Below are positions 10,595 through 37,169 of a stretch of DNA of 64,000 bases, in pieces. The translations under genes and the position numbers were made by a program. The notes under the pieces were generated by a model that saw only the letters and a list, made by a program, of their open reading frames with translations, was not told the origin of the DNA and did not search any database. Position 1 is the stretch's first letter; every line of letters begins with the position of its first letter. Source of the DNA: a virus; the IMG/VR virus record IMGVR_UViG_3300035698_010959, one strand, 5' to 3'.

Positions 10595-10603
10595 GTATGT
10601 TTC

Positions 10604-14771: not shown

Positions 14772-15854
14772 TTACTCGTAGTTAAATTGTGGATGTATTT
14801 TTTTTATGTGAGTAAATACTTCTTTCCACCAGTTAGTTGCGTTATATATTTCTGTTGTTTTTTTACATCCAGAGTCTGCAATAGCAATTCGCTCATTATC
14901 ATGTTCTAAGTAGTAGTTTACTATACTTAGAAGTTCTTTTTTAGAGCTATACTCTACATAGTCTGTTCTTGGTGTGAAGTAATTATGTGTGTATGTGTCT
15001 ACTGGTTGTAGAAGCATTGTGCCACAGGCTGTTGCTTCAAATACTCGTCCTTTAAGTTGAGGAGTATTTCTAATACTATCTGTGGGAAAGTTTAATGTTA
15101 TCTTTGATCGTTTATAGTAGTTAGCATACTCTTCATTTGATAGTTTGTTTCCTTCTATACGTCCTCCTGCTAAAACTATATTTGTATTGTATTTTATTTG
15201 TGCTATATGGCTACGTCCTATTGGTTTTGAAGCAAGGCTGCCTATATAACTTATATCTATATCTCTTTTTAATCCTGGATTGTTGTATAGTTTATTGTCT
15301 TCTGGTGTCCATGTATATAGTGGGTTTGTATATACATATGAGCTATTCATTCCATCTGGTAGGATATGTCCTATAAAACAATCAGTGTATTGCTGTAAAG
15401 CTCCTTCTACAGTTGAGCAACATCCTCCTCCTCCTTTTGTTGCGTCCCACCAAATAGGTAGTATTGGTATGCCAAGTTCTTCATATATTTTTTTAAATGT
15501 TTCATATTTTGGATTACGTGGGTGTCTTGGCATAGATAATATTATACAATCAGGACATAGCTCTTTACATATAGTTATAAGTTTGTCATCAACGGAGGGT
15601 ATTTCTATTAAAGATTTAACAAAAGCCTCTTCGTTTGCATCCCATAGTACGTATTTCTCTGGAGTTAATACTACATTCTTGGGGTCTGTGCTATTATATA
15701 ACCACTCATCATAGTAAAATACATGTGTATGTGCTGCTAGTCCAGTATTTTCTAACGAGTTTCGTAGCATATGCTCTGAGTAACTTGTTCCTTTATCTGG
15801 ATCATTATCACACCACTTAGTTTTTATTAATAGTACAGTAGGTTGCTTAGGCAT
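14772..15854 (-). CDS. CgeB-like (Glyco_trans_1_2) glycosyltransferase
   Basis: RDIDISYIGS, SKITLNF, LKGRVFEATACG, ERIAIADSG. Confidence 0.85.
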   Translation of the reverse strand: MPKQPTVLLIKTKWCDNDPDKGTSYSEHMLRNSLENTGLAAHTHVFYYDEWLYNSTDPKNVVLTPEKYVLWDANEEAFVKSLIEIPSVDDKLITICKELCPDCIILSMPRHPRNPKYETFKKIYEELGIPILPIWWDATKGGGGCCSTVEGALQQYTDCFIGHILPDGMNSSYVYTNPLYTWTPEDNKLYNNPGLKRDIDISYIGSLASKPIGRSHIAQIKYNTNIVLAGGRIEGNKLSNEEYANYYKRSKITLNFPTDSIRNTPQLKGRVFEATACGTMLLQPVDTYTHNYFTPRTDYVEYSSKKELLSIVNYYLEHDNERIAIADSGCKKTTEIYNATNWWKEVFTHIKKIHPQFNYE

Positions 15855-16382
15855 TTAAATATTGTCTCCGTGTGTATCTCTTTCTGAGAGTATTGGATTA
15901 TTTATAGGCCAGTGTACTCCCAGTCTTTCATCATTCCACAATACAGTAAACTGGGAAGCTCTGTTATAATATTGTGATTGTTTATAATGTAGTATAGCAT
16001 AATCACTCATAACTAATTGAGCACCTGCACTGTTAGGTGGAATCAAAAGCTGTAATCCATTTTTATCAGATAGTGTAAATCCTTGATGTTTTAAATAGTA
16101 TGGGCTTTCTTTATCATAGTTTAGGACTACAAAGTAAATGCGCCCTTTAAGGCAGGTAATTAATTTCCATGTCACGCTGTCTCCGTGGAATCCTCTAAGT
16201 ACATGCTTTGTAGATGTTGAAGCATTGTCTTGTACAAAGTCTATATCAAACCCTGTTGCTTGCTGTATCTCATTCTTGTATGTATCTTTTTTATATAGTT
16301 CTAAAAAACTACCTCTAAAATCTTCAAAGTTAGTTGGTAAGCTTACTGTGAACAGTCCCGGTAGGGTCGTGTTGTGAATCAT
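15855..16382 (-). CDS. rfbC: dTDP-4-dehydrorhamnose 3,5-epimerase family (cupin)
   Basis: FEDFRGSFLE, FVQDN.S.S.KHVLRGFHG, WND..LG..WP...PILSERD. Confidence 0.9.
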   Translation of the reverse strand: MIHNTTLPGLFTVSLPTNFEDFRGSFLELYKKDTYKNEIQQATGFDIDFVQDNASTSTKHVLRGFHGDSVTWKLITCLKGRIYFVVLNYDKESPYYLKHQGFTLSDKNGLQLLIPPNSAGAQLVMSDYAILHYKQSQYYNRASQFTVLWNDERLGVHWPINNPILSERDTHGDNI

Positions 16383-17895
16383 TTAAATATGTTCTCTCTA
16401 GTTTTATTTTTGTCATTCTATTTAGATGGTCAATTATGTGTGGACCGAATGTAGTCTTCATCATTGCCCTATATGCTGTGTTATTTTCTGAATAATATTC
16501 TTGCCAAGCAGCATCTCTAAATTTCAATACCTCTAAACCATCTAAATATTTTGTTGGTAGTGGTATAAAGTCTTTTGAAAATTGAGCATAGCCTCCCCAT
16601 GTTTTAGGTAGTGGCCATCCTTTTTCTTTTGCTTCAATGTATAGTTTAGATCCTGGATACGCTGCGGCACAATGGAAGTTTACAAACTCTGTATTTAATT
16701 CATGTGCTAACGAGAGAGTGTCTTCCATAGAGTCATGAGTATCTTCTGGTAATCCAAATATCCAGCTTGTAGCCATGTAGATACCTTCATTTCTTAGCTT
16801 GTGTGCTGCTTCTCTTGAAGTATCTACCTTTGTTTTTTTAGAAATACTTTCTAGTATTTTTGAGTTTCCAGATTCTATTCCAATTCCAAACCAGTTCATT
16901 CCTGCTTTTTTCATTAGAGGTAGCAAATCTGTATTACATATGACGTTACTTCTAGCATATATCCACATGTTTAAGTCGTAGTTTCTGTCTATGATTCCAT
17001 CACATATAGCTTTTACATGTTCTCTATTACATAGAAACAATTCATCTGCTATTTTTATATTGCTTACACCATATTCTGTTACCAGCGTATCTATTTGGCT
17101 TAATACATACTCTGGGTCAAATAGTCTGTAACTGCTTGATTTATAGTTTGATACGCGCTCTCCTGATCTAAATGGAGCCTGTATACAACAAAAATAACAA
17201 TTGTATGGGCATCCAAGTGAGGTATATAGTGTTCCATATGGCTGTCTATTATCTGGATTTGCAAAGCAATGCCAGTTATGTGCTTTGTAGTTTTGCATAG
17301 GCAACAGGTACCAAGGAAGATCTGTAATTTCTTTGTTTATATCCGCAAGAGGAGCCCTTTTTTTAGCATTAGGTAGTATCATATATCCTTGAGGAGTATT
17401 TGAGTATAAATCTGGTACATCATTTGTTTTTTTCTTTTTACTTTGTAGTGCTTTTACTAATGCTGGGATTGTTGCAAAGCCTTCTCCACCACATGCGTAT
17501 GTTGCTTGGATCTCTTCAAGACTTTTAATAGGTAGAGCTGCGATATGACCACCTACTAACAGTACATCTTGATCTGGTGTTTGGTTACATATTGCATTAC
17601 ATACTTCTTGTGCTGAGGGTATAAGTTGAGTAGACGCTGAGGGGTTATGTCCATATACTACAACTACAGTTAGCGTAGGTTTTAGAGTCTTTATTCGTGT
17701 TGCTATTTCTTGTGGGGATAATCTTTCTGCATCCCCATCAATAATGTCTACTGATAGTCCGTGCTTCTGAGCAGATGCTGCTAACATTAGAGCCCATATA
17801 GGTGGTTCTATTGCTGCAAACTCGTTTATTAGAGTCTGATAAGACTTTGAAGTGTTTCCTATATTTATAAATACTACATCCAGATGCTTGTTCAT
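16330..17895 (-). CDS. cobalamin-dependent radical SAM enzyme (class B methylase-like)
   Basis: B12-binding N-term (EPPIW, VGGH), TSLGCPYNCYFC, IADELF, GIESGN, FGLPEDT, YPGS.LY. Confidence 0.92.
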   Translation of the reverse strand: MNKHLDVVFINIGNTSKSYQTLINEFAAIEPPIWALMLAASAQKHGLSVDIIDGDAERLSPQEIATRIKTLKPTLTVVVVYGHNPSASTQLIPSAQEVCNAICNQTPDQDVLLVGGHIAALPIKSLEEIQATYACGGEGFATIPALVKALQSKKKKTNDVPDLYSNTPQGYMILPNAKKRAPLADINKEITDLPWYLLPMQNYKAHNWHCFANPDNRQPYGTLYTSLGCPYNCYFCCIQAPFRSGERVSNYKSSSYRLFDPEYVLSQIDTLVTEYGVSNIKIADELFLCNREHVKAICDGIIDRNYDLNMWIYARSNVICNTDLLPLMKKAGMNWFGIGIESGNSKILESISKKTKVDTSREAAHKLRNEGIYMATSWIFGLPEDTHDSMEDTLSLAHELNTEFVNFHCAAAYPGSKLYIEAKEKGWPLPKTWGGYAQFSKDFIPLPTKYLDGLEVLKFRDAAWQEYYSENNTAYRAMMKTTFGPHIIDHLNRMTKIKLERTYLNDSQHDPTGTVHSKLTN

Positions 17896-18876
17896 TTAGA
17901 TTCTTCCTTCTTTTCTAAGCCTGTCTTTGTTTTGTTTAAACCATGTCAAGGTTAGATCTAAGCCTTCTTCTATTTGTATCTTTGGAGTAAACCCTAACAG
18001 TTCTTTTGCTTTGGTATTATTTATTAATCTCTTTGGTATCATTGTTGGTTGTGCTGTATCATAGCATTTGTATGGATTAAAGTTTTCTAGTTTAAGAAGA
18101 ATGTCTATGAACTCGTTTATAGATACGCCTTGCCCTTGTCCTATATTTATTTGTTCAAAGGTATTTATTTTTTCTAAAGCTAATAGTGTAGCATCTGCAA
18201 CATCATCTACATAAGTAAAGTCTCTTATTTCTTTACCATCTCCCCATATCTGTAGAGGATCTTGGTGTTCTACTATTTTTCTCAGCAGTGCTGGAAGTGC
18301 ATGGCAGGTATCTAAATTAAAATCGTCGTTTGGTCCATACAGATTTGCTAGTCGTAATACCATTGTAGTCATTGGCCGTGGAAGCCTTGAGTAGGTTTCG
18401 CATTGTTTTTCTATATAACGCTTATACCAACCCATTTCAAAATATTTGTCATATGGATCTCCAGAAAACATCTCTTCTTCTCTAACTGGATGGTCTACGT
18501 CTGGATAAGCGGTTGAGCTACCAAAGTATAGAAATTTTTCTACTCCTGCGTTGTAAGAAGCCTCTAACATATTTATACCCATTCGTATGTTTGGGTTAAC
18601 TAAACTAAGTACATTATCTACTGTAATTTTAGCATTACCTACAACTGCTGCTGCGTCTACAACATATTGCCAATCTTTTACTACGTCTTTACATTGGTCT
18701 AAATTTGTAAGATCACACTGATGGTATACTACACCATCTAATACTTCTGGTATTGGTCTGTTATGGTAAGTTGCTTTTACTTGTGCTCCTGCTGCGTGTA
18801 ATGCTCTTACTATAGCTGTTCCAGCAAGTCCAGAACCACCAGCTACTACTACTGTTTTGTCTTTAAAGAATGGCAT
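17896..18876 (-). CDS. GDP-L-fucose synthase/ColC-like epimerase-reductase
   Basis: VAGGSGLAGTAI, AAVVG, NLYGPNDDF, HALPAL, IWGDG..IRDFTYVDD. Confidence 0.85.
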   Translation of the reverse strand: MPFFKDKTVVVAGGSGLAGTAIVRALHAAGAQVKATYHNRPIPEVLDGVVYHQCDLTNLDQCKDVVKDWQYVVDAAAVVGNAKITVDNVLSLVNPNIRMGINMLEASYNAGVEKFLYFGSSTAYPDVDHPVREEEMFSGDPYDKYFEMGWYKRYIEKQCETYSRLPRPMTTMVLRLANLYGPNDDFNLDTCHALPALLRKIVEHQDPLQIWGDGKEIRDFTYVDDVADATLLALEKINTFEQINIGQGQGVSINEFIDILLKLENFNPYKCYDTAQPTMIPKRLINNTKAKELLGFTPKIQIEEGLDLTLTWFKQNKDRLRKEGRI

Positions 18877-19868
18877 TAGATGTTACTCCTTTGATAAGGT
18901 AGTTCTGGATATACATCTTGTATTTCAGATAGTACCTTGTTCCACCAGGCATGTGCGTTATACTGTTGTGTTGCTTTGAAGCATCCACTTCTTGCAATTG
19001 TCCTTCTCTCACTTTTGTGTGCTATGTAATACTTTGCTTTTTCTATTAAGTCTTTCTTTGAAGAGTATGGTATGTAGTCTATGTAAGGAGTTAGCCATAA
19101 TTTTGTTTCATCATTTTCTGGTTCTAATAGCATTGCTTCACATAATACAATTTCAAAGGTTCTTCCTTTTAGTTGGTCTGGAACCATGGGGGAATCTTTT
19201 GGAAAGTTAAGAGAGATTTTAGATCTCTTTAAATAGTCTGCATATGTTTCTAAGTGTATTGGTCGTTCTCGTGTTCCTCCATCTGTTATAACAGCTATGC
19301 CTGCGTATTTTAGAGAAGCCAGATGTGATCTTCCTATTGGTTTATGCCCAAGACTACCTATGTAACTTATGTCTATGTCTTTGGGTGGATAGTCTTCTAG
19401 TTTGCTGTTAAATATTGATGGATCCTCTACTCCCCATGTCACAATTGGATTTTTGTATCTTTCATAATGTAGTTTTCCTGCTATTAATATGTGTGCTAAA
19501 AAGGCGTTATGTTGTGCTACATCAGATCCTGCTCCTTTTACAGAATCAAACCATATCGCTACTGTTGGTATTTTTAGTTTTGCTTCTATTAGTTCAAATG
19601 TTATTGGCTTTGGGTTGAGTGGATTGCCTGGTATTTGTGTAAATATAATAAGATCTGGTTTTAATTCTTCACATGTTTTTAGTAGCGCTTTATCACAATC
19701 ATACTTTTTGATTAATACACATTCATCATAGTAAAAGTTATCAAAACTAGCAAGATCTGTTGATCTTAGTGTGTTAAAGAGTGTATGGTAGTTATTTGAT
19801 AGTCCCATATCTGGATTTGTATCACACCATTTTTCTGTTACAAATAAAATGTGTGGCTTGTTCCTCAT
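18876..19868 (-). CDS. CgeB-like glycosyltransferase (paralog of 14772..15854)
   Basis: KDIDISYIGSL, KPIGRSH, RSKISLNF, QLKGRTFE. Confidence 0.85.
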   Translation of the reverse strand: MRNKPHILFVTEKWCDTNPDMGLSNNYHTLFNTLRSTDLASFDNFYYDECVLIKKYDCDKALLKTCEELKPDLIIFTQIPGNPLNPKPITFELIEAKLKIPTVAIWFDSVKGAGSDVAQHNAFLAHILIAGKLHYERYKNPIVTWGVEDPSIFNSKLEDYPPKDIDISYIGSLGHKPIGRSHLASLKYAGIAVITDGGTRERPIHLETYADYLKRSKISLNFPKDSPMVPDQLKGRTFEIVLCEAMLLEPENDETKLWLTPYIDYIPYSSKKDLIEKAKYYIAHKSERRTIARSGCFKATQQYNAHAWWNKVLSEIQDVYPELPYQRSNI

Positions 19869-19870
19869 AG

Positions 19871-21688
19871 TTATTTACCTATCCTTCCTGGATAGACTGG
19901 ATCTTCCCAACCATCAAGAGGTTTTATAATCATATTTGCTTTGAATTCATCTCTTGGTAAGAAAGGATATTGATCCTCTATTGGGCTATCCCATCCAAGT
20001 CGGGGCTTATAATCATAGAAGTCCTTCATGTTTATGTCACACAGTATAGGTCCTCGTGTATTTAATGCGCTTTTTATATCTCTTTCTAAGTTGTCTTGAT
20101 TGTTTATTTTTAATCCTTCTATTCCATAAGCAAAAGCCAGTGAAATAAGATTAGGTAGTTTAACCCCATGATTAGCATCTACTCCAGCATAGTTAGAGTT
20201 TAGGTGTGTATCTCTGTATAACTTTGTTATACCATATCCGCCATTGTTGAATATCATTATTTTAATAGGAAGGTTATAATTTACTATTGTTTGTAGTTCC
20301 TGTATGTTAAAGTTTATACCGCCATCTCCTACTATACATATAACTGGCTTACTTGGGTCTGCTATTGCTGCTCCTACTGCTGCTGGAAGACCATATCCAA
20401 GTGAAGAGTTTCCATTATTAGAAAAGAATCTTTGGTTTGGTTTTGTTTCCCAGGCTTGTGATGATACAACACAGTTACCTCCAGCTTCTACTACTATTGT
20501 AGCATCTTCTACTATATTAGATAGTGTTTTTACAAATACATATGGATTTACACTTTCTTTTTGATCATAGTATTCATTTTGTACTACTGGATAGTTTATT
20601 CTCCAATTACAAACTCGGTATCTCCAGTCTTCTATATTGTTTATAAAGGCTGTGCTACGTAGTGCTTGTCTGTGATTTATTTCATATAGTAATAACTTTA
20701 TAAATCTTTTCGCGTCACATTTTATATTTAGATCTGAGTGTATATCTTGATTATCTAATAGCGCTTGATCTATGTCTACTACTATCTTAGTTGCTTCACG
20801 AGCAAAGGCATCTGTCTTTCCTCCTGTAATTCGTCCTGGTATTCGTGATCCTATACATAGAAGAAGGTCACAGTTTTGTATTCCAAAGTTTCTTCCATCT
20901 CCGCCAAATGTGCCTACTCGTCCTCCAAAGTAAATGTCATCATGTGTTCCGAAGTCTATAGCATTCCATGTTACAAAGTAAGGTATACCTGTGTTTTCAA
21001 TTAATGTTCTTGCTTCTTTGTAAGCATTTGATAACCATATCCCACCACCAAATAATATAGCAGGACGTTCTGATTCTTCTAATAGAGATATTATTCTGTT
21101 TATTTCTCTATCTATTGATTTATCTTCTTTTATTGGAGGTGTAAAGCCTTTTAGTGTATTTGGGTCTATCTCTGCTCTTTGGATATCCATTGGAATATCT
21201 AATAGTACAGGCCCTTGTCGTCCGTTTGTAGCTAAATATATTGCTTTATCTAGTTCTGCTTTTATTGTTTCTGGGTCTGTAATCATAACAGCATACTTGG
21301 TAACAGGTTTAACTATCGAAACAATATCACATTCTTGGAATCCCCTTTGTCTCATAGCTAAATCTTGACATTGGAATCTTGAGTTTACGTTTCCAGTAAA
21401 ATATATTGCTGGTATTGAATCATAGTAAGATGCTGCTAGCCCATTAAGAAGATTTTGTCCAGCGGGTCCTGATGTAACAACCATTGCAGCCATTTTTCTT
21501 TTTGTTTTATAGTAACCATCTACTGCGAATGCTCCTGCTTGTTCGTGTAGTGGATAGTAACAATGATCCGGTCCATATTCATTTGCTATATCAACTAATA
21601 ACTTAGCACATGCGGAACCATCAATCATAAAAACATCTTCTATTCCTATTTGTTTTAGATATTTAGAGATGTATTCTGAAACTGTCAA
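19871..21688 (-). CDS. ThDP-dependent acetolactate synthase-like enzyme (YerE-like in sugar context)
   Basis: HEQAGAFAVDGY, VTSGPAGQN, GFQECD, LGYGLPAAVGA, GDGG...NIQEL...NNGGYG. Confidence 0.9.
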   Translation of the reverse strand: MTVSEYISKYLKQIGIEDVFMIDGSACAKLLVDIANEYGPDHCYYPLHEQAGAFAVDGYYKTKRKMAAMVVTSGPAGQNLLNGLAASYYDSIPAIYFTGNVNSRFQCQDLAMRQRGFQECDIVSIVKPVTKYAVMITDPETIKAELDKAIYLATNGRQGPVLLDIPMDIQRAEIDPNTLKGFTPPIKEDKSIDREINRIISLLEESERPAILFGGGIWLSNAYKEARTLIENTGIPYFVTWNAIDFGTHDDIYFGGRVGTFGGDGRNFGIQNCDLLLCIGSRIPGRITGGKTDAFAREATKIVVDIDQALLDNQDIHSDLNIKCDAKRFIKLLLYEINHRQALRSTAFINNIEDWRYRVCNWRINYPVVQNEYYDQKESVNPYVFVKTLSNIVEDATIVVEAGGNCVVSSQAWETKPNQRFFSNNGNSSLGYGLPAAVGAAIADPSKPVICIVGDGGINFNIQELQTIVNYNLPIKIMIFNNGGYGITKLYRDTHLNSNYAGVDANHGVKLPNLISLAFAYGIEGLKINNQDNLERDIKSALNTRGPILCDINMKDFYDYKPRLGWDSPIEDQYPFLPRDEFKANMIIKPLDGWEDPVYPGRIGK

Positions 21689-22862
21689 AGCTTTTTATCC
21701 TCCCAGATAATCCATCGTTTAGCCTACTCATTGCTTCATATAGTTGATCAATTGAGCAGGATGCGTAACTTATTCGTATATTATTTGTACTGTTTGGTCC
21801 GAAGTAACTACCAGATAGTGTTACAACTCCCAGGGTATCGAGTGTCCAGTTTTGGAAATCTATTCCATCCTTTTTTGTATCTTCTATTGAAGGGAATACA
21901 TAGAATGCTCCACCAGGCATTGGACAGTCTATTCCAGGCATATTGTTTAGTGCTTCCACTACTATGTCTCTTTTTTCTTGTAGCTCGTTTCTTAGTTCTT
22001 TTGGAAACTCTGTATCCTTTAAAGCTCCTATTGCTCCGTGTTGTGTAAAGATTGGCATACAAGATAGTAATGTTTGTACAAGTGCGGCGATTCGCATTGC
22101 TACAAGAAGCGGAGCAACTACGTATCCCATTCTCCAACCAGGCATACAATGTGTTTTAGATAAACTTCCAAGTAGTATTGTTCTTTTTTCACATTTATCT
22201 ATGTTACATACAGATTGATGTGTAGCACCATCATATACTATTTCTGAATATACTTCATCGCTTAGAATCCACATATCATTTTCTTTCGCAGTTTTATAAA
22301 GATCATGTAGTGTATCTTTAGAAAGTGTAGTTCCTGTTGGATTGCTTGGACTATTTATTATTAGCAGTTTGGATGTATTATCTTTTGCTATGTTTACTAT
22401 GTCTTTAGTTAGCGTATAATCGTTTTTTATGTTTAATGGTGCGTATTGTATGTTTGTTTCTGTGTAGTTAGCTGCTGCTGTGTATGTAGGAAATCCTGGA
22501 TCTGGACATATTACTCCATCTCCTTTATCTAAACAACATTGCATAACAAAACTTATTAGTGCGTTTGCTGGAGCAACTATTATACAATCAGTTTGTGGTC
22601 TAAATCCATGTGTATTACATATGTATTCAGATATTTCTTTTCTTAGCTCTTCAAGCCCTTGTGAATCAGCATATCCAATATTTCCTAATGCCAGAGATGC
22701 TACTGTATCTAATATGGCATCGTTAGGAGGACTATGTTTAGTATCTCCTATTTCCATATGTATTATCTCTTTGTCTGGGCTAATGATGTTGTTGGCTTTT
22801 TTCATTAGGTCAAACATAGGTTGTCCAGTTAGTTTTTTTGATCTATTTGATATTGTTGCCAT
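21663..22862 (-). CDS. PLP-dependent aminotransferase class I/II
   Basis: INSPSNPTG, LSDEVY, SLSKTHCMPGWRMGY, PGGAFYVF. Confidence 0.92.
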   Translation of the reverse strand: MATISNRSKKLTGQPMFDLMKKANNIISPDKEIIHMEIGDTKHSPPNDAILDTVASLALGNIGYADSQGLEELRKEISEYICNTHGFRPQTDCIIVAPANALISFVMQCCLDKGDGVICPDPGFPTYTAAANYTETNIQYAPLNIKNDYTLTKDIVNIAKDNTSKLLIINSPSNPTGTTLSKDTLHDLYKTAKENDMWILSDEVYSEIVYDGATHQSVCNIDKCEKRTILLGSLSKTHCMPGWRMGYVVAPLLVAMRIAALVQTLLSCMPIFTQHGAIGALKDTEFPKELRNELQEKRDIVVEALNNMPGIDCPMPGGAFYVFPSIEDTKKDGIDFQNWTLDTLGVVTLSGSYFGPNSTNNIRISYASCSIDQLYEAMSRLNDGLSGRIKSFDSFRIHL

Positions 22863-23985
22863 CTAAAATTACCAACTCGTTATTGATTAGTTTTAATTGT
22901 TCTACTATTTCATTACGGTACTGTGCTACGTTTAGTATTACTGCTGTTTTGTTCCATAGTATATCGTTTGGATATTGAGATAAGAATTTTGTGCCATATA
23001 GTCTTTTGTTATTCTTTAGTTCTGAATTATCTACGATTCCTGCTATTTTACTTTCATTCAATCCAAATGATCTTAGTATGGTGTAGAAAATATGTGCTCC
23101 AAAGAAATATATTGGGCAGTCAAGCTCAAGCATTTGCTTGTTTATGTTTGTTACTCTTTCTGTATTTAAGTGTATGTAGTTTGTAAACAATGTTTTGTTG
23201 TATTCATAGTCATTTAGGTTACGTATATGCATTGGACGTTTTGATTTCTTTGTTACATATATATCAGATAATGGGTTATTGCTACATCTTTCTATTATAG
23301 TAAACCCACATAAATTTAACATATGTATTACATTGCTTCGTGTTAGTAGTAATGTATGTTCAAAATTTAAACAATTAGTTGTACCTGTTATAAGTTGGTT
23401 TTCCATATCAGGTATTGCGAAAATATGATAGCCATCTTCTGGTAATTGTTTGTATATTTGTTTAAGCGTGTTTAATGGATTTATTGTATGCTCTAAGAAG
23501 TTACTGTGTACAATTGTATCCAAAGGCTGTGTACAGATTGGCATATCTTCAAAGACAGCAGTTACTCGTTTTATGGCTTTAGTTGATTCTTTAACATGGT
23601 TGCGGTCTACTATTGTCCAGGAAGCACCTTGGTTATGCTGTGTATAGTAGTTAGCAAGGTGCCCTTCTCCTCCTCCAAGTTCTAAGATGTTGGTTGAGTT
23701 ATACTTCTTTAGTGTATCTTCTATAGACTTGTTAAGTGTAGACCATGCTTTTCCTATTCCATCATTGTGGTGTTCTAAATAAACTAAGGTAGGATCAACA
23801 AGGTTTTCTAATTGAATGGTTCCAGTATCTTTACAGATACCAAAGGACATATCTGCACATAGATCTTGGTCTTGTGGACTAGTTGTACATCCCATATATA
23901 CTGGAAAGTCTTTAAATGTGTATAGGTGTTCCAGTTCCTTGTTTGTAAATATACTATTTCGTTTTGTTGTATCTGCTGTTATCAT
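22843..23985 (-). CDS. SAM-dependent methyltransferase (sugar C-methyltransferase-like architecture)
   Basis: FPVYMG, ILELGGGEG, SNFLEH, FEHT, C-term FFGA..VDNSELK..KRLYGT. Confidence 0.8.
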   Translation of the reverse strand: MITADTTKRNSIFTNKELEHLYTFKDFPVYMGCTTSPQDQDLCADMSFGICKDTGTIQLENLVDPTLVYLEHHNDGIGKAWSTLNKSIEDTLKKYNSTNILELGGGEGHLANYYTQHNQGASWTIVDRNHVKESTKAIKRVTAVFEDMPICTQPLDTIVHSNFLEHTINPLNTLKQIYKQLPEDGYHIFAIPDMENQLITGTTNCLNFEHTLLLTRSNVIHMLNLCGFTIIERCSNNPLSDIYVTKKSKRPMHIRNLNDYEYNKTLFTNYIHLNTERVTNINKQMLELDCPIYFFGAHIFYTILRSFGLNESKIAGIVDNSELKNNKRLYGTKFLSQYPNDILWNKTAVILNVAQYRNEIVEQLKLINNELVILDGNNIK

Positions 23986-23988
23986 AAA

Positions 23989-24981
23989 TTATTGTGCTCT
24001 TGAGTAATATACTACTTCTGATCCTCTGCTGTGGAAAGTAAATGGAATATGTGTTAGGTCACTAAGTTCTTTTTTTATGTCTTCTTGGTTATCTGGTGGA
24101 GCAAATAATAATAGAGTTCCGCCTGCTCCTGCTCCGTTAAGTTTACCTCCGAGTGCTCCTGCGGTTTTTGCTCGTTCATATATATTATTGATTTTTGTAT
24201 TAGTTACTTTACTTGATAGGTTTCGTTTCAGTTTCCAATATTCATCTAACAGTATTCCTATCTCTAATATATCATCTTTTGCTAAACATGTCAAGGCTTC
24301 ATCAGCAAGATGTTGTATAATTCTTACACTTTCTCGCTTTTGGTCTATGTTTGGTACAAATGTACTTGCCACTGTTGCTGCTATTCGTTCTATTCCTGTA
24401 TAGAATAACATTAGATGGTTATCTAATTCATTTATTGTATGTTGTGGAAGCATTATTGGCTCTACAAAGAACTCTCCATTACGATTAAATTCTATGTGAT
24501 TGAATCCGCCATAAGCTGCTTGTATTTGGTCTTGACTGCCTACAGTTTCATTTAATACTTTTTGTTCTATGTATATTGCTTCTTCTGCGAGTTGTCGTTT
24601 TGTTAACATTCTTCCATTTAATCCATTAAGTGCTAACAATAACCCTACAGTAAAAGCAGAACTTGATCCCATACCACTTTTTGCTGGTAGATCTCCGTCA
24701 TAATGTATTTCTAATCCCATTGTTGGTAGATTATCTACTGAGTTTAGTACTCCACGAACAGCCGGATGTTCTATTTCATTTATTAAATTACATGCTTCTA
24801 TTTTTGAATATACTACTCTGTAGTTGTGTTCAAAAAATGGAGGCAGTTCTCTACAGGACATATAACAAAACTTATCTATACTTGTTGTTATTACCCCACC
24901 ACCATGTTTTAGGTACCAGTTTGGGTAGTCGGATCCTCCACCAAAAAGGCTTATTCGATATGGTGTCTTTGTTATAACCAT
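23989..24981 (-). CDS. hddA: GHMP kinase, D-glycero-alpha-D-manno-heptose-7-phosphate kinase-like
   Basis: TPYRISLFGGGSD, DLPAKSGMGSSSAF, GSQDQ, GGKLNGAGAGG. Confidence 0.9.
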   Translation of the reverse strand: MVITKTPYRISLFGGGSDYPNWYLKHGGGVITTSIDKFCYMSCRELPPFFEHNYRVVYSKIEACNLINEIEHPAVRGVLNSVDNLPTMGLEIHYDGDLPAKSGMGSSSAFTVGLLLALNGLNGRMLTKRQLAEEAIYIEQKVLNETVGSQDQIQAAYGGFNHIEFNRNGEFFVEPIMLPQHTINELDNHLMLFYTGIERIAATVASTFVPNIDQKRESVRIIQHLADEALTCLAKDDILEIGILLDEYWKLKRNLSSKVTNTKINNIYERAKTAGALGGKLNGAGAGGTLLLFAPPDNQEDIKKELSDLTHIPFTFHSRGSEVVYYSRAQ

Positions 24982-26153
24982 TATAATATATTTAATCTCT
25001 TACATAATTCTACTATTTTGTATTGATTTAGTGTTGGATAGTTACCTATGTAAAAACTATTGAAGTGTAGGTAATCTGTTACTTCAAACTGTTCTGGACG
25101 TAAGCAAAGCCTTTTTAGATAAGGCTGTCTTAGCTGGTTTCCACCACCAGATAATCCCCTACGGTATTCTATTTTACTTTCTTGTAAAACTTTTTCTATT
25201 TTTGGTGTAAGGTCTGAGTTCCTTGGTACGATTGTAAGCGCATAGTTTGAGCTACCCTCTACTCTGAAGTCTGTTTTGTAGTGTTCTGGGTTTAGGTTCT
25301 TAAGAAACAACTTTAGGTTTTGCTGTCTTGTGGTTATTTTAATATCTAAATGCTCTAATTGAGATAATCCAAGTACTGCGTTAAGCTCTGTACTTCTCAT
25401 ATTATATGCTGGATACATAAAGGTAAAGTCTGGTGTTAGATCTGAATAGGTTACAGATATTTCATCTCTCCAAGGCTTGTGTAAGCTTTCTCTTATTAGT
25501 CCATGTGATCTAAATACTCTTGCCATTTCATATATCTGTTTTTTGTTTGTACAGATCATTCCTCCTTCTATTGTAGACATATGATGAGCAAAGTAGAAAG
25601 AAAAGTTAGATATTTCTCCAAATGTTCCGAGTTTTTGGTTTCTAAATGTAGCTCCAGTGCTTTCACAAACATCTTCTATTAGCTTTATATTTCTTTTTTG
25701 TAGTTTATGTAATAGTTTGTTTGTAAGCGCATTGTATCCCATTATATGAGAGATAAACACTGCTTTTGTTTTAGAAGTTATTGCTTGTAGAACTTTATCT
25801 GTATCTAAGCCTAATGTATTTACATTAATGTCTACAAATACTGGAGTAAATCCAGCAAATATTACTGATGTAATATCTGATACCCATGTTAGAGGTGGAA
25901 TAATTATTTCTCCTCCTTCTGGATATAGTTCTTTTAGAATAGCCATAGAGATAATATTAGCTGAGGATCCAGAGTTTACAAATATACTGTACTTACATCC
26001 TAGCCATTGCGACCATTGTTCTTCAAACTCTTCTACTTTTGGGCCATTAGTTAGTCGTGGATCATCTTGCTTTAGATACTCTATTAGATTATCTAAATCA
26101 TCTTTAGATATATTATTTGACATTAACGGCCAGTCTAGGTTTAAGGATTCCAT
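24981..26153 (-). CDS. DegT/DnrJ-family PLP enzyme, ColD-like 4-keto-6-deoxysugar 3-dehydratase
   Basis: VNSGSSAN, EDVCES.GA, SFYFAHHMSTIEGG with His instead of the Schiff-base Lys. Confidence 0.85.
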   Translation of the reverse strand: MESLNLDWPLMSNNISKDDLDNLIEYLKQDDPRLTNGPKVEEFEEQWSQWLGCKYSIFVNSGSSANIISMAILKELYPEGGEIIIPPLTWVSDITSVIFAGFTPVFVDINVNTLGLDTDKVLQAITSKTKAVFISHIMGYNALTNKLLHKLQKRNIKLIEDVCESTGATFRNQKLGTFGEISNFSFYFAHHMSTIEGGMICTNKKQIYEMARVFRSHGLIRESLHKPWRDEISVTYSDLTPDFTFMYPAYNMRSTELNAVLGLSQLEHLDIKITTRQQNLKLFLKNLNPEHYKTDFRVEGSSNYALTIVPRNSDLTPKIEKVLQESKIEYRRGLSGGGNQLRQPYLKRLCLRPEQFEVTDYLHFNSFYIGNYPTLNQYKIVELCKRLNIL

Positions 26154-27070
26154 AAGTTGTGTCTCTCCAGATAATTTAAGAAAAATAGAGTTGGGTCTTT
26201 AAAATAATTTCTTACTACTGTATCAAAATAAACTCTTGCTGCTTTAGCTCTGTCCTGTAATTCGCTTATAGGGGTTTCTGCTATTTTAGTAAGTTCATTT
26301 GCTAATTCAGTTTGTGTTAATGTGCTTGGTAGTTGATAGGCAAATGATGTATCATAGTAGTCATATCCTGTGTATAAACATTCTCCTATTATAACTGGAA
26401 CTCGTGTAAAGTAGCATGCTTCAAATCTTCTTATTGTTCCTATTCCAGCACCTTGTGGGCATACTGCTATTAGATTGTTTATCATTACATCTTGATATTG
26501 TTTACATATAGCTTGATCTACATTTACTCTACCAGACCATCCAGGATTAAATTGATAGTTTGCTTGCAGTTTTGCGAGTCGTAATGCTTTATATGTTTTT
26601 ACTCTTGTATTTCCTTTTACATCCATCTCTCCTTTAAATCCAAAGGATATACTATTAGGTATACTAAACTCTTCATGCATATGTCTTACTATGTATACTA
26701 AAAACTTTGAAAGCGCAGGTCGTCCCATTGCGTATCTATTTTTCCAGTGTATTGGTATACAACTTGAAGTTACTATAGAGTCTTTAAGGTCTTCACGTAT
26801 TGTTGTGTTATTATAATCTCCTTCTAAATCTGCTATATGAAAACGTTTATATTCATTCCAAAATTCCCAATTTTTTTGTTCTATTGTAGGCATGCTTGGA
26901 TTGATTTCTCCCATATAGAAGAACTCAGCATTCCATGGAGATACAGATTCTACCCAATCTTCCATACCTTTTTGACTAAAAGGTGTGCAGTTTTTATAAC
27001 CTGGTAGTGGAGATAAGTCACAGCAAACAGGTTTTCTATTTGGATATAAATACATTTTTAGTTTTTTCAT
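26141..27070 (-). CDS. exostosin/GT47-like protein
   Basis: FKGE...TR, AVCPQGAGIGTIRRFEACY..RVPVII. Confidence 0.7.
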   Translation of the reverse strand: MKKLKMYLYPNRKPVCCDLSPLPGYKNCTPFSQKGMEDWVESVSPWNAEFFYMGEINPSMPTIEQKNWEFWNEYKRFHIADLEGDYNNTTIREDLKDSIVTSSCIPIHWKNRYAMGRPALSKFLVYIVRHMHEEFSIPNSISFGFKGEMDVKGNTRVKTYKALRLAKLQANYQFNPGWSGRVNVDQAICKQYQDVMINNLIAVCPQGAGIGTIRRFEACYFTRVPVIIGECLYTGYDYYDTSFAYQLPSTLTQTELANELTKIAETPISELQDRAKAARVYFDTVVRNYFKDPTLFFLNYLERHNLWNP

Positions 27071-28017
27071 TATATAAACTCTGGGTGTTTTATTTCTCTT
27101 ATAGCATTAAGTGTTTTATTTATTTCATGATTCTTACAACATGTTAGACATGTATTATTTACAGGTAGGCTTAGTGGTATACTATTTATTATAGAAGAAA
27201 ATGAATTATTTTTCAAGTTTCCTATAATATATTCATCTTCTTTCATATGGTAGTTACATACTCTTACGTTTCCGTTATAATCTATTACAGGAGTAAAGTG
27301 TCCAGCATAACATTGTGTGTATGTTTTTGGTTTTCTACACTCGGCAAATTTATATTCTGATAGATATACTTTAAAGTCTTTTGTTTCATAGTCTTGTAAA
27401 TAATAAGGTATGTCTATATCTGGTTGTTGTTTATAGTTATTTACTAATGCTGGTCTTACTTGAAAATAATGTACTCCTAAATCTCGTGCTTGTTTACAAA
27501 GCTCTTCTGCTCTATCTATGTTTTCTGGAGTTACATTTAATGAGATACCTACTGTTGTATGTTGTATATAGTTTGCTATGAGTAGTGGGTCTATAGCTTC
27601 TATGTATTTATCTGTTAGAGATATTCGTATCCATTCAAATAATTTTGGATTTGCTGGATGTCCTCTTGATATTGCGTTTGTAAATAGTCCTTGCTTTATT
27701 CCAAAGTGAGAGGCTCGACTTGAGAAACTATCAAAAGAGGGATGTAATGTAGGTTCTCCACCTCCTGTATAATTAATTGCTAGAACTCCTAATTTTGCCA
27801 TATCTGCTATAGCAGCTAATAGTGCTTCTGTATCTATACTTTCTGTGGAATGTTGATTAGCATAGAAACACCAAGGGCAGTTAGCATTACATACATTTGT
27901 TGGAGAGATTTCTACTAATATTGGTGTTGTTCTACCTGTTTCTATCTATTGTTTTACTCTATCTGCGTGGTAGAATAGCTTTGATTGTGGTGAAAAGCTG
28001 GTTGTTTTATTGTTCAT
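27070..28017 (-). CDS. radical SAM/SPASM enzyme with in-frame TAG at codon 24 (possible pseudogene or readthrough)
   Basis: ATG 28017; TAG 27946-27948; then PILVEISPTNVCNANCPWC (CxxxCxxC), TGGGEPT, SPASM CYAG...GNVRVC. Confidence 0.82.
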
Positions 28018-28744
28018 TTGATGCTGCCATTGTTACTGTTGTATATTTTGTATACTCTTCTGGTGTTCCTATATCATGAAAAGAGGTATTACAAACGTAG
28101 GCGTATAGTAAGTTATCTTTGGCCCATCGTGGGAATATATCTAACTCTAGTGAGTTATATTTATTTTGAGGTATGCTGTCTTCTATTAAATTACGCTGTA
28201 GTAAATAGAGCCCAGCATTAACTAATCCATTTGTATTATCTTCTTTTTCTTTAAAAGCTGTAATTGTTTTATCGCTATCTATGGTAAGTGTTCCATAGTT
28301 TCCTGTCTCTTGTTTGTAGTATGCCGCTATTGCTCCTAAGTAATTTCTTTTTGGCTCTAACAGTTCTTCTTTTATATCATTAATTGATATACTATCATCG
28401 TATAGTGTATCTCCGTTTATAATAACACATCTCGGTGCTATTATTTTATTTAGGGCATTAGCAAGTGCTCCTCCTGTTCCCATAGGAGATAACTCATGTG
28501 AATAGTTGATTGTGGTTCCTTTGTAGTGTGTTCCAATTGTACTATATATTTGTTCTCCGCGATGGCCTGTACATATTATTATGTTTTGTATTCCATTGTT
28601 TATAAAGAAATCTAATTGATGGTATATTAATGGCCTATTTTGTATTGGTACAAGAGACTTGGGTATATCTGGAAACATAGACTTTAGACGTGTTCCCTGT
28701 CCTCCAGCTAATATTATTCCTTGTGTATATACTGGGTTAAGCAT
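28007..28744 (-). CDS. hddC: sugar-1-phosphate nucleotidyltransferase (HddC-like guanylyltransferase)
   Basis: ILAGGQGTRL..PKSL, SPMGTGGAL, INGDT, VNAGLY, SLELDIFP, DIGTPEEY. Confidence 0.85.
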   Translation of the reverse strand: MLNPVYTQGIILAGGQGTRLKSMFPDIPKSLVPIQNRPLIYHQLDFFINNGIQNIIICTGHRGEQIYSTIGTHYKGTTINYSHELSPMGTGGALANALNKIIAPRCVIINGDTLYDDSISINDIKEELLEPKRNYLGAIAAYYKQETGNYGTLTIDSDKTITAFKEKEDNTNGLVNAGLYLLQRNLIEDSIPQNKYNSLELDIFPRWAKDNLLYAYVCNTSFHDIGTPEEYTKYTTVTMAASNEQ

Positions 28745-29690
28745 TTCCGTAATGTTCTTTCCGTATCATGCTATATCCCTTTATTAGTTCTTTTATTCCT
28801 GTATCTAAATCAGTTCTTGCTATGAATCCAGCATTTGCTAATTTTTTACTTGATACAATATAATTTCTTTTATCTGGATCACGTCCAGTTGCTGCTTCGT
28901 GTATGTATAGTTCTGGAATGTACTTCTTTATTTGTAGTGCCAGGTCTTCTTTTGACATGTTTAGAGAATCATTACCTACGTTGTATATATTGTGCGCCAT
29001 GTCATCTCTATGTTGAATACAGTAGTACATACAAGCAGCGATATCTCCTATATATACATAGTTTCTCATAAAATCTTTCTCAAAAAGCACAATAGACCTG
29101 TCTGTAAGTGCCTTTAATACAAAGTCATTTACAAGCAGGTCTGTTCTCATTCGTGGTGACATTCCAAATACAGTCGCCAATCGTAGAGATATAGAGTTAG
29201 AATGATAGGTTAATAGATAGTTTTCAGCTTCAGCCTTTAATCGGCCATAAAGAGTTATAGGAGTTAGTGGAGTACTTTCAGTACATAATAAATTGCTTGA
29301 GTCTTGTGTTCCATATCCACTATTTGTTGTTGGATAGATAATAAGTTGGTCTTTGCTAATAATAGTTGGAGAGAGTAATGTTTTTATAGTACATACGTTT
29401 GTTGTTTCTGCTGTTTGTTTATTGTTATCACAAGCAGGAGCACCAACAATACAAGCAAGAGGTATAATAACATCTTTGTTCTTTACATGTTCTTTTAGTA
29501 AGTTAGAATCTCGTGCGTCTCCGTATATAAAGTTAAAGTTAGGATAGTTACACACACCAAACAAACCTGTTTGATGGTACATTAAGTTGTCTATTACAGT
29601 TACATCAAAAGCTCTATCTAGTAAATATTTTGTTAGAACAGAACCAATATAGCCTGCTCCGCCCGTTATTAATACTTTTGCTTTCTTCAT
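28737..29690 (-). CDS. NAD-dependent epimerase/dehydratase
   Basis: VLITGGAGYIGS, LACIVGAPAC, YGRLK (YxxxK), LRLATVFG.SPRMR.DLLVN. Confidence 0.92.
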   Translation of the reverse strand: MKKAKVLITGGAGYIGSVLTKYLLDRAFDVTVIDNLMYHQTGLFGVCNYPNFNFIYGDARDSNLLKEHVKNKDVIIPLACIVGAPACDNNKQTAETTNVCTIKTLLSPTIISKDQLIIYPTTNSGYGTQDSSNLLCTESTPLTPITLYGRLKAEAENYLLTYHSNSISLRLATVFGMSPRMRTDLLVNDFVLKALTDRSIVLFEKDFMRNYVYIGDIAACMYYCIQHRDDMAHNIYNVGNDSLNMSKEDLALQIKKYIPELYIHEAATGRDPDKRNYIVSSKKLANAGFIARTDLDTGIKELIKGYSMIRKEHYGNA

Positions 29691-32238: not shown

Positions 32239-32988
32239 TTAGGTAATTTCTTTGATTTTTGCTAATGTTACTTTTGTAAGAGCTATATCTGAATTTTCTA
32301 ATAGATATTCACCAAGGGAATCATATCTTGTTCCTTCTAAACAAACTATTCTTTTAATTCCTGCGTTGATTAGTGTTCCTATACAGTTTTTACATGGTGT
32401 AGTACAGTAACAATATAGTGTAGAATTATTTGTAGATATCCCATTCTTTGCTGCGTTTATTATTGTATTTGCTTCTGCATGGACTGCTGGACATAGTTCT
32501 AGGTTTTTTCCACTTTGTAATCCTAGTGTCTTTCTTGGACAATATTTATTTGTTTGACATAGCTTGCTACCAGCTGGTGCTCCATTGTATCCAATAGATA
32601 ATACTTGTTTATCTCTTGTTAGTACTGCTCCTATTTGTCTAGAAGCACATTTACTTCTTTTACTTATTTGCCATGCCATATCCATGAAGAAAGCATCCCA
32701 AGTTTGCTTATCTGTAGGTTTTGCTATACATACATCACTAAAGTTACTATCTTCCCACCAGTCTGTAGTGCTTGTTTGTTCTGAATCAGGAAGTAGTTCA
32801 TTTAGATTGTCATCTGTTAGTACTGTCATTTTCTTGTGTGTTGTCCTCTCTTTAATTAAAGAATCTGCCCAGTGCTCAAATGCTGAAGAATCTTCTACTT
32901 GTTTTTTACATAGAGCATGTAGCTCATTGTCACTTAGTTTGTTTAAATATGGATTTGTATTTCTTAGTGAGTTGTTTCTTCTTTTCAT
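32239..32988 (-). CDS. dCMP deaminase with N-terminal extension
   Basis: WDAFFM..A...RSKC..RQIGAV, IGYNG, VHAEANTI, PCKNC; start moved to 32988 because the track start lies inside tRNA-Gly. Confidence 0.9.
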   Translation of the reverse strand: MKRRNNSLRNTNPYLNKLSDNELHALCKKQVEDSSAFEHWADSLIKERTTHKKMTVLTDDNLNELLPDSEQTSTTDWWEDSNFSDVCIAKPTDKQTWDAFFMDMAWQISKRSKCASRQIGAVLTRDKQVLSIGYNGAPAGSKLCQTNKYCPRKTLGLQSGKNLELCPAVHAEANTIINAAKNGISTNNSTLYCYCTTPCKNCIGTLINAGIKRIVCLEGTRYDSLGEYLLENSDIALTKVTLAKIKEIT

Positions 32989-32997
32989 TATAAGTTT

Positions 32998-33073
32998 TGG
33001 AGCAGGCAGCGAGGTTCGAACTCGCAACTTCTTGCTTGGAAGGCAAGTATTCTTCCAATTGAATTATGCCTGC
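32998..33073 (-). tRNA. tRNA-Gly(TCC)
   Basis: Full cloverleaf; anticodon arm CTTGC-CTTCCAA-GCAAG; TTCGAAC; encoded CCA. Confidence 0.93.
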
Positions 33074-33081
33074 TTTGTTAT

Positions 33082-33156
33082 TGGTCCCTCCAAAGAGAAT
33101 TGAACTCTTCTCTCTTAATTGACAGTCCGATGTTTTAGCCAATGAACTATGAAGGG
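33082..33156 (-). tRNA. tRNA-Asp(GTC)-like, degenerate anticodon stem (possible pseudo-tRNA)
   Basis: Acceptor CCCTTCA/TGGAGGG, T arm AAGAG-TTCAATT-CTCTT, CCA; anticodon stem TCGGA/TTAAG mismatched. Confidence 0.65.
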
Positions 33157-33168
33157 ATTAGTGTTAAT

Positions 33169-33984
33169 CTATTCAAGTTTTATTGAAGGTGAAGGACTAT
33201 CTGTGTCAATATTGTGAGTTACTTTTCTAGGTTTGACCCGCTTTCTGGTACCACGACGATATGCATCTTGAAGGTTGCCACTAGGTGTTACCCACTCAAG
33301 ATTACATGCATTGTTGTTCTCTGGGTTTCCATCTCGATGATTAACCCATTCTTTGTAATCATCATCAGGTGGACGTATAAATAGGGTTGCTACTGCTATG
33401 TGAACATACAAAGTCTTTTGTCTAACACCATTTTTCCAAAGAGCTACAAACTTGTATTTTCGTCCATTGTCACTGAGGGCAATAGGCTTGTATTGCTTTC
33501 CATGTCGTTTTTTAGTAGCTTCGGTGTATTCTTTGCGAATATTTCCATAATTGGAGAATTCATATGCCGGAAAGTCAGGCCATTTACGATATTCTTCACC
33601 CCAAGTATAAGGTCTATCATCTAAGTAGCTTGCAATGTTGTTATATTCCATAAGGGTAAATAATCCCCATGTGGCATGGGCTAGATGTTGAAGTCCACTT
33701 TCGGAGTCTATGTCTTCACCACGCCGCCATGCTTCTAGGTGACGCATAACTGCAGCATAAACGCGGGACCAGTTAATGCCCAATCTATAATTATTAGATT
33801 CATATTTTTGTGCTCCGAATGTATATACAGATACTAGAGCTTCTAAGGCATGTGGTGGTAGTAAATCGTATCGCAATTTTTGATTATCATACTTCAACCC
33901 TACTCCGGTTTCTGTTTCTGTTTCATCTTGTGCTAGATGTTCATCTTTGATGCATTTACTCATGTTAATATAGTGTCCTCCCAT
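33169..33984 (-). CDS. DUF5664 dATP/dGTP diphosphohydrolase fused to NUMOD4-HNH endonuclease
   Basis: KYDNQKLRYDLLP, FGAQKY..NNY..G, RHL..W..GED.D.ESGL.HLAHA; then YEFSNYGNIR, VNHRDGNPENNNACNLEWVT. Confidence 0.88.
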   Translation of the reverse strand: MGGHYINMSKCIKDEHLAQDETETETGVGLKYDNQKLRYDLLPPHALEALVSVYTFGAQKYESNNYRLGINWSRVYAAVMRHLEAWRRGEDIDSESGLQHLAHATWGLFTLMEYNNIASYLDDRPYTWGEEYRKWPDFPAYEFSNYGNIRKEYTEATKKRHGKQYKPIALSDNGRKYKFVALWKNGVRQKTLYVHIAVATLFIRPPDDDYKEWVNHRDGNPENNNACNLEWVTPSGNLQDAYRRGTRKRVKPRKVTHNIDTDSPSPSIKLE

Positions 33985-37167: not shown

Positions 37168-37169
37168 GT

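Follow-up and report, generated by a model that had tools for sequence, protein, structure and literature searches.

In the pathway to yersiniose A (E1/E3, YerE and YerF), a 3-dehydratase with a histidine in place of the catalytic lysine is combined with a thiamine diphosphate (ThDP) enzyme of the acetohydroxyacid synthase (AHAS) fold, and this combination is the logic of the pathway (PMC9306805). YerE has relatives among the lyases ErwE, MygE, JanthE and PpYerE. A histidine-type 3-dehydratase also occurs in the colitose pathway, where ColD acts on guanosine diphosphate (GDP)-4-keto-6-deoxy-D-mannose. The third system of interest is the set of capsular GDP-heptose enzymes of Campylobacter jejuni (HddA, HddC, Cj1427, the HS:5 C3-dehydratase, the Cj1430-type epimerases and the Cj1428-type reductases). 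The Raushel group has used Cj1427 and the HS:5 C3-dehydratase to make GDP-D-glycero-3-deoxy-4-keto-heptose in vitro, a compound that the group calls novel (PMC10680097). Here we describe nine genes at positions 19871–29690 of a 64,000-nucleotide stretch of viral DNA (IMG/VR record IMGVR_UViG_3300035698_010959; the whole stretch is called the window here). We read this cluster as the biosynthetic core of a nucleotide-sugar cassette that is widespread and uncharacterised and that a phage carries here. With confidence only slightly above even, we propose that its enzymes carry out a YerE-like branching of a 3-deoxygenated GDP-heptose. Judged from homology, the product is most likely a 3-deoxy, carbon-branched sugar that has not been described before.

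The window is the first part of one linear record of 142,839 bases, the completeness of which is estimated by CheckV at 72%. The long open reading frames (ORFs) of the record lie on the minus strand nearly throughout. The ends of the nine genes overlap or abut by 1–26 nt, an operon-like arrangement. In the order of transcription, they are:

28737–29690, minus strand: extended short-chain dehydrogenase/reductase (SDR), Cj1427-like; proposed GDP-heptose C4-dehydrogenase (PDB 6vo6)
28007–28744, minus strand: sugar-1-phosphate nucleotidyltransferase, HddC-like (Pfam NTP_transferase, 1.3e-31; NCBIfam)
27070–28017, minus strand: radical S-adenosylmethionine (SAM)/SPASM gene with an in-frame TAG, possibly a pseudogene
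26141–27070, minus strand: putative glycosyltransferase, GT47/exostosin-like (Atlas features)
24981–26153, minus strand: predicted ColD-type 3-dehydratase of the DegT family, with pyridoxal/pyridoxamine phosphate as cofactor (PDB; alignment of the histidine)
23989–24981, minus strand: GHMP sugar kinase, HddA-like (PDB; NCBIfam)
22843–23985, minus strand: putative enzyme of nucleoside diphosphate (NDP)-sugar C-methyltransferase type, TylC3/TcaB9 architecture (Pfam; Atlas)
21663–22862, minus strand: class I aminotransferase, Asp/aromatic type (Pfam, 1.3e-55; PDB)
19871–21688, minus strand: predicted YerE-like ThDP carboligase, AHAS-like fold (Pfam; PDB; tree)

A preliminary description, made from the letters of the stretch, had listed most of these genes. 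Each gene that it named, the methyltransferase at 22843–23985 among them, was found on the minus strand at its expected position by ORF, Pfam and NCBIfam analysis. Two genes of the cluster come in addition, the GT47/exostosin-like gene at 26141–27070 and the radical SAM/SPASM gene at 27070–28017.

The cluster resembles the yersiniose A pathway, and the gene sets of the YerE-like lyases, in that a histidine-type 3-dehydratase for a 3-deoxy-4-keto nucleotide sugar lies beside an AHAS-fold ThDP enzyme. It differs in several respects. The scaffold is probably GDP-heptose-like with a 6-hydroxyl group and not a cytidine diphosphate (CDP)-3,6-dideoxyhexose, and the dehydratase is of the ColD type and comes without an E3 reductase. 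Beyond this, the cluster is carried by a phage and comes with a class I aminotransferase, a B12 radical SAM enzyme and a putative C-methyltransferase. In the titles and the opening parts of the abstracts of papers that name both yersiniose and phage, no phage pathway is described.

The ThDP enzyme (19871–21688) contains the Pfam domains TPP_enzyme_N, M and C (E 1e-39, 2e-26 and 3e-22). The cofactor motif and the activating glutamate are intact: H48-E49-Q50, G454-D455-G456 and N481-N482 are invariant in an alignment of 18 sequences. The three-domain fold and the GDG...NN motif are shared with the biosynthetic AHAS enzymes IlvB, IlvG and IlvI. The top NCBIfam models are likewise AHAS large subunits (E 5e-105), and homologues of the enzyme are labelled ‘acetolactate synthase’ by their sources. 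Read in this way, the gene would be an auxiliary metabolic gene that encodes an ordinary acetolactate synthase for the synthesis of branched-chain amino acids, and the aminotransferase would be its IlvE-like partner. However, the score against TIGR00118 is 352 bits, below the AHAS cut-off of 538, and a search of the 142,839-base record for the AHAS small (regulatory) subunit gave no TIGR00119 match. Dozens of genomes, like the phage, have this gene within a sugar operon. The neighbouring aminotransferase is of class I, whereas IlvE has the class IV fold.

Comparisons with solved structures point the same way. A single-sequence search of the PDB ranked 8rph first (4.5e-99), followed by 5ahk (3.3e-75), which we take to be the PpYerE entry, and then by the best AHAS, a plant enzyme (1.5e-72). 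A profile built from 18 family members scored 482 bits to JanthE, 411 bits to PpYerE and 348 bits to the best AHAS. The JanthE engineering paper cites entry 8rph. A review (PMC12247030) counts JanthE and PpYerE among the YerE-like lyases and notes that their structures have been solved. We also built a quick IQ-TREE tree from the 49 rows that were kept from 96 after dereplication at 80%. Four true AHAS sequences (Salmonella IlvB, IlvG and IlvI; Staphylococcus IlvB) were split from the 45 rows of the family with an SH-like approximate likelihood ratio test (SH-aLRT) value of 100 and a branch length of 1.99. The window enzyme lies outside the Salmonella and Staphylococcus AHAS, so the grouping with IlvB that the preliminary description had named as a refutation of its reading is absent. 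On the tree and the small-subunit search, we rejected the AHAS reading, and we regard it as extremely improbable. By the PDB scores, the sugar-branching lyases of the YerE-like kind are nearer relatives of the ThDP enzyme than AHAS is, in line with the role first suggested for it. Within the family, it falls in a clade of eight rows with sequences from a 211-kb viral contig, Methanoperedens, Syntrophales, Arcobacter, Nitrospinota and Saccharibacteria. Its protein relatives number thousands, the best of them at 55–71% identity.

The DegT enzyme (24981–26153) is the predicted source of the 3-deoxy group. Its motif FSFYFAHH aligns with SHH of ColD, and the first histidine is the catalytic residue, as marked in the alignment by the ColD mutant entries H188N and H188K. 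ColD is the best match in the PDB (2gms, 1.6e-50), ahead of E1 (3bcx, 1.4e-36). In the loci of related ThDP genes, 62 of 63 neighbouring DegT enzymes likewise have histidine in the ColD His188 column. ColD-type 3-deoxygenation by an enzyme with histidine for the catalytic lysine had been proposed from the motif, and the alignment bears this out. No E3-type reductase, the partner of an E1-like dehydratase, was found in the 142,839-base record. The enzyme would differ from ColD in its substrate, which is probably a 6-hydroxy heptose, and in the fate of its product, which would enter C4 branching, whereas that of ColD is epimerised and reduced to colitose.

Downstream, the genes continue with a CgeB-like gene, an Fcl-like SDR, a B12 radical SAM enzyme, an RmlC-like epimerase and a second CgeB-like gene, and then four unassigned proteins. 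The first five are:

18876–19868, minus strand: CgeB-like putative glycosyltransferase (Pfam PF13524)
17896–18876, minus strand: GDP-fucose-synthase (Fcl)-like SDR (NCBIfam; PDB)
16330–17895, minus strand: B12-binding radical SAM enzyme (Pfam Radical_SAM and B12-binding)
15855–16382, minus strand: RmlC-fold 3,5-epimerase (PDB)
14772–15854, minus strand: CgeB-like putative glycosyltransferase (Pfam PF13524)

The Fcl-like and RmlC-like genes, which had been placed near the cluster, are thus both just downstream of it.

The scaffold on which these enzymes act is most likely a GDP-heptose. The SDR at 28737–29690 matches 6vo6 at 3.4e-92, an entry that we take to be Cj1427, the GDP-heptose C4-dehydrogenase with tightly bound, 2-oxoglutarate-recycled NADH; the next PDB match is at 2.2e-19. 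The deoxythymidine diphosphate (dTDP)-glucose 4,6-dehydratases match it only at approximately 4e-16. In 4,6-dehydratases, a catalytic Asp/Glu acid/base pair lies beside the active-site threonine, and the window enzyme carries TNSGYG where the pair would be. The term ‘SDR dehydratase’, used for this gene in the preliminary description, should therefore be dropped. A Pfam GDP_Man_Dehyd search of the 142,839-base record found three extended SDRs (the Cj1427-like, the Fcl-like and one resembling uridine diphosphate (UDP)-xylose synthase) and no 4,6-dehydratase. There is therefore no candidate for 6-deoxygenation, and the likely product is a 3-deoxy sugar rather than the 3,6-dideoxy sugar that had been predicted. 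For an octose, named earlier as an alternative to the heptose, we found no supporting evidence.

The GDP-heptose part of that prediction has gained from the comparison. The top eight PDB matches of the RmlC-fold epimerase (2e-33 to 1.5e-31) are ahead of dTDP RmlC (3e-29), and five of the eight are named for GDP-D-glycero-heptose. Inside bacterial clusters among the related loci, a GmhA-type SIS_2 gene is present in six and a GmhB-like HAD phosphatase in four. The isomerase and the phosphatase of the heptose pathway are not encoded in the phage record and so are probably supplied by the host. The kinase matches 3k85 (7.6e-38), WcbL (4usk, 1.2e-33) and the C. jejuni enzyme 4n3o (4.8e-31), with HddA as its best NCBIfam model; the best model of the nucleotidyltransferase is HddC (E 7.5e-40). 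The Fcl-like SDR matches the NCBIfam model Fcl at 2.2e-47 and, in the PDB, 7ll6 (8.3e-36) and the GDP-fucose synthases. Its proposed role is to reduce either the keto group at C4 or the ketone of the branch. The window and the C. jejuni toolkit share enzyme families, and the likeness is strongest for the SDR and the epimerase. The expected intermediate, GDP-D-glycero-3-deoxy-4-keto-heptose, would be the very compound made with the C. jejuni enzymes (PMC10680097). Steps of ThDP branching, B12 radical SAM chemistry and class I transamination are not part of the C. jejuni system.

Other genes of the record also touch on sugar activation. The SDR at 36166–37167 (minus strand) was considered as a 4,6-dehydratase and rejected, as it resembles UDP-glucuronate decarboxylase (UDP-xylose synthase; PDB 2b69, 3.6e-83). 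It is adjoined by a fructose-6-phosphate aldolase/TalC-like protein, and the pair (36166–37808, minus strand) looks like a second sugar route. On the same strand, a nucleotidyltransferase fused to an APH-type kinase (7832–9421) is followed in the sequence by a ribulose-/allulose-phosphate 3-epimerase-like protein (9415–10092) and by a 6-phospho-3-hexuloisomerase-like SIS protein (10604–11155; 144 bits against a cut-off of 160). The genes at 7832–11155 may form a third sugar-activation module or supply a ketose phosphate.

Proteins encoded at 44–53 kb match ‘virion structural protein’ families of PHROGs. The closest cultured relatives are very remote: Bacillus jumbo phages of the 0305phi8-36 type, connected by weak protein links only. 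A megablast search against known phages gave no DNA-level match to the record. From the virion-protein matches and the remote jumbo-phage links, we conclude that the cassette is carried by a large uncultured phage.

We used ThDP homology to select eight viral and 80 genome loci and searched these with the window proteins. Homologues of the ColD-like enzyme were found in 65 of the 88 loci, of the B12 radical SAM enzyme in 61, of the SDR in 58, of the GHMP kinase in 56, of the nucleotidyltransferase in 54 and of the aminotransferase in 52. The methyltransferase at 22843 had a homologue in none of the 88. About half of the genome loci are from Nitrospira, and dereplication at 80% ThDP identity left 44 loci. 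Among these, 30 have the ColD-like gene, 24 the SDR, 23 the B12 radical SAM gene, 20 the Fcl-like gene and 19 the kinase; the aminotransferase and the nucleotidyltransferase are each present in 15. In Ca. Nitrospira defluvii (L033, 3229–11800), seven core genes are contiguous: the histidine-type DegT enzyme, the Cj1427-like SDR, the GHMP kinase, the nucleotidyltransferase, the aminotransferase, the B12 radical SAM enzyme and the ThDP enzyme. Unsupervised clustering of the 1258 ORFs of the loci returned the seven core families as the commonest neighbours. The core set turns up again in bacteria (Nitrospira, SAR11, Prochlorococcus and candidate phyla), in archaea and in further viral contigs.

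A smaller module is frequent in viruses. In IMG/VR, 69 loci carry a Cj1427-like SDR and at least 131 a ColD-like gene, so that phages can be said to carry the module commonly. The best 80 of the ColD-seeded viral loci (L158–L237) contain the Cj1427-like SDR in 77 cases, the B12 radical SAM enzyme in 62 and the GHMP kinase in 53, and so show a compact module. The version complete with the ThDP gene is rarer, being found in only eight of these 80. No homologue of the HddC-like transferase of the window was detected in any of them.

The gene of the aminotransferase (21663–22862) overlaps that of the ThDP enzyme by 26 nt, as noticed at the outset. The best PDB matches of the protein are 1gd9/1dju (1.5e-52), and it is of the Asp/aromatic amino-acid aminotransferase type. 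It keeps NPTG, D..Y, SxSK....GxR and the arginine of a C-terminal IRxSYA, which are motifs of its subgroup. These motifs fit any amino-acid donor and therefore do not decide between its two conceivable roles, the supply of a 2-oxo acid to the ThDP enzyme and the amination of the branch that this enzyme makes. An aminotransferase homologue occurs in 15 dereplicated loci, and in 11 of them it lies at most 400 bp from the ThDP gene. Six bacterial and archaeal loci (L056, L066, L072, L073, L082 and L087) have instead a PanB-like gene of the ketopantoate hydroxymethyltransferase family (Pfam E approximately 1e-100). It abuts the ThDP gene in four of the six, and the aminotransferase co-occurs in none of this small sample. 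Two pairs of sister ThDP sequences in the quick tree, L073/L075 and L082/L086, differ in having PanB in one member and the aminotransferase in the other. PanB acts on 2-oxo acids. With a PanB-like enzyme in the place of the aminotransferase, branch amination fits no better than donor supply, and perhaps less well. In the erwiniose (ErwE-type) cluster, the genes that make the donor are likewise next to the ThDP gene (PMC9306805). On this comparative evidence, the aminotransferase most likely makes the 2-oxo-acid donor from an amino acid; it may instead aminate the branch ketone.

The preliminary description had considered amination. In this version, there would be a 3,6-dideoxy-4-keto GDP-heptose or octose, a YerE-type acetyl branch from pyruvate and conversion of this branch by the aminotransferase to a 1-aminoethyl group. 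The gene overlap and the adjacency in 11 of 15 loci would suit such a role, and so would an accessory distribution of the aminotransferase, which is what one expects of a tailoring enzyme. Transamination is listed among the known modifications of ThDP-made acyl branches in PMC9306805 and PMC12247030. However, a record with no 4,6-dehydratase has no enzyme for the 6-deoxygenation, and nothing was found in favour of the octose. The aminotransferase belongs to the amino-acid/2-oxo-acid type, and the sugar aminotransferases known to us are all of the DegT family. The substitution of a PanB-like enzyme beside the ThDP gene in other loci also argues against amination. We consider this version unlikely.

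In the route that we favour, YerE-like branching of a 3-deoxygenated GDP-heptose, the HddA-like kinase would phosphorylate a heptose phosphate at C1 and the HddC-like transferase would form the GDP-heptose. The Cj1427-like SDR would oxidise C4 while the 6-hydroxyl group is kept, and the ColD-type enzyme would remove the 3-hydroxyl group to give GDP-3-deoxy-4-keto-heptose. The YerE-like ThDP enzyme would then decarboxylate a 2-oxo acid and transfer its acyl group to C4, which would become a branch point with a tertiary alcohol. The donor would be derived from an amino acid by the aminotransferase, which is predicted to be translationally coupled to the ThDP gene; otherwise the aminotransferase would aminate the ketone of the branch. 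The C-methyltransferase, the B12 radical SAM enzyme, the epimerase and the Fcl-like reductase could either tailor this sugar or make a second, unbranched 3-deoxy-heptose. Attachment would fall to the neighbouring GT47-like, CgeB-like and GT2 transferases, with virion proteins or the host envelope as the target.

Another conceivable outcome is that only unbranched GDP-3-deoxy-heptose(s) are made, as in C. jejuni, by oxidation, 3-dehydration, epimerisation and Fcl-type C4 reduction, and that the ThDP enzyme and the aminotransferase build a separate, small amino or acyloin substituent of the glycan. The full enzyme set for such a product is encoded, and the small share of ThDP genes among the best ColD-seeded viral loci (8 of 80) fits with it. 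Two viral loci, L001 and L002, have the aminotransferase, ThDP and B12 radical SAM genes, and the ColD-like and SDR genes are absent from the retrieved stretch; the flanks of both loci are, however, short on one side. The ColD-like histidine enzyme accompanies the ThDP gene in 30 of the 44 dereplicated loci, much like the pairing of E1 with YerE, and the nearest solved relatives of the ThDP enzyme are ketone-accepting lyases that branch sugars. We therefore judge a purely unbranched product to be quite unlikely.

Several observations nevertheless weigh against the branched route. All its chemical steps are read from homology. A C4 reduction by the Fcl-like enzyme and a branching at C4 exclude each other, and the two cannot occur on one molecule. 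The sequences of YerE, ErwE, JanthE and PpYerE were left out of the tree, so ‘YerE-like’ refers to the PDB scores and the gene context. The best NCBIfam scores of the kinase (HddA, 127 bits), the nucleotidyltransferase (HddC, 137 bits) and the Fcl-like SDR (Fcl, 162 bits) are below the cut-offs of 600, 300 and 500; in the comparison with C. jejuni, the kinase and the transferase, with scores under the equivalog cut-offs, are distant. Neither GmhA nor GmhB was matched in the 72%-complete record, which does encode the HddA-like and HddC-like genes. The viral relatives L089 and L171 have ThDP, B12 radical SAM, ColD and SDR genes and no aminotransferase, which makes the aminotransferase accessory. 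They also have no PanB-like gene, and this limits the argument from donor supply. In a check of whether the aminotransferase stands in for a branch reductase, its presence showed no association with that of a candidate reductase (with it, five yes and five no; without it, four yes and seven no). The locus counts are conditional and phylogenetically lopsided, as the loci were chosen by ThDP homology and about half are Nitrospira.

In the methyltransferase (22843–23985), Pfam finds only the core domain, Methyltransf_23 (2.8e-11), and there is no sequence match in the PDB. Its structure and feature neighbours in the Atlas combine PF13489 with two domains of C-methyltransferases, PF08484 at the C-terminus and the zinc-type PF08421 at the N-terminus. 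At template-modelling (TM) scores of 0.85–0.95, PF08484 is present in 36–98% of the members. This architecture of the neighbours is that of NDP-sugar C-methyltransferases and points to a methyl transfer beside the 4-keto group. The B12 radical SAM enzyme, the most constant partner in the related loci, probably has the sugar or its branch as substrate. Codon 24 of the radical SAM/SPASM gene is an in-frame TAG (27946–27948). The first ATG after this TAG comes only beyond the CxxxCxxC motif, so that the annotated ORF of 243 residues would omit the motif. The homologue in the Prochlorococcus locus (E 2e-33) has phenylalanine at the position of the TAG and is approximately 85 residues longer. The TAG could reflect a pseudogene, a sequencing error or read-through.

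The protein at 26141–27070 has Atlas feature matches of 0.96 to Exostosin_GT47 clusters, and its homologue in locus L066 has a weak Pfam GT47 match. The CgeB-like paralogues at 18876–19868 and 14772–15854 are 40% identical, and members of their family accompany the cassette in 15 Nitrospira loci. Two further paralogues at 11198–13372 (minus strand), 35% identical (E 1e-60), are of unknown function and have the motif CRHFDGYSHVGI in common. Four of the 80 ColD-seeded viral loci hold homologues, and the two proteins are candidates for novel transferases of the glycan system.

If the branched route is correct, YerE-type carbon branching reaches beyond the CDP-3,6-dideoxyhexoses of a few Gram-negative O-antigens. 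Branching of GDP-heptose would then extend to Nitrospira, SAR11, Prochlorococcus, candidate-phyla bacteria, DPANN and methanotrophic archaea, and large phages. Viral and environmental genes annotated as ‘acetolactate synthase’, ‘aspartate aminotransferase’ and ‘panB’ would be glycan genes and not genes of amino-acid or vitamin metabolism. The ThDP family would also be a ready source of ketone-accepting ThDP carboligases for biocatalysis. For the phage, the question is whether a jumbo phage devotes approximately 25 kb to the decoration of its virion or to the re-coating of its host. A more speculative picture, which we hold to be doubtful as a whole, is that the phage places an undescribed sugar on the surface of the virion or of the infected cell. 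This would be a 3-deoxy-heptose with an amino-acid-derived side chain at C4, C-methylated by the TylC3-type enzyme, the B12 radical SAM enzyme or both. Swaps of the donor gene (aminotransferase, PanB-like or none) would then diversify the glycan in an arms race between phages and bacteria.

Hypermodified DNA as the target of glycosylation is unsupported: neither a hydroxymethylase of the thymidylate-synthase family nor PurZ was found in the 142,839-base record. A dCMP-deaminase-family protein (32239–33027, minus strand) adjoins a protein at 33169–33984 (minus strand) that has a dATP/dGTP diphosphohydrolase N-terminal domain and an HNH motif. The pair at 32239–33984 resembles the nucleotide-pool remodelling of modified-base phages, yet it stands in a record with no PurZ or thymidylate-synthase-family gene. 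A protein of 212 residues at 34677–35315 (minus strand) carries a C-terminal SEC-C metal-binding motif (Pfam, 5.6e-09).

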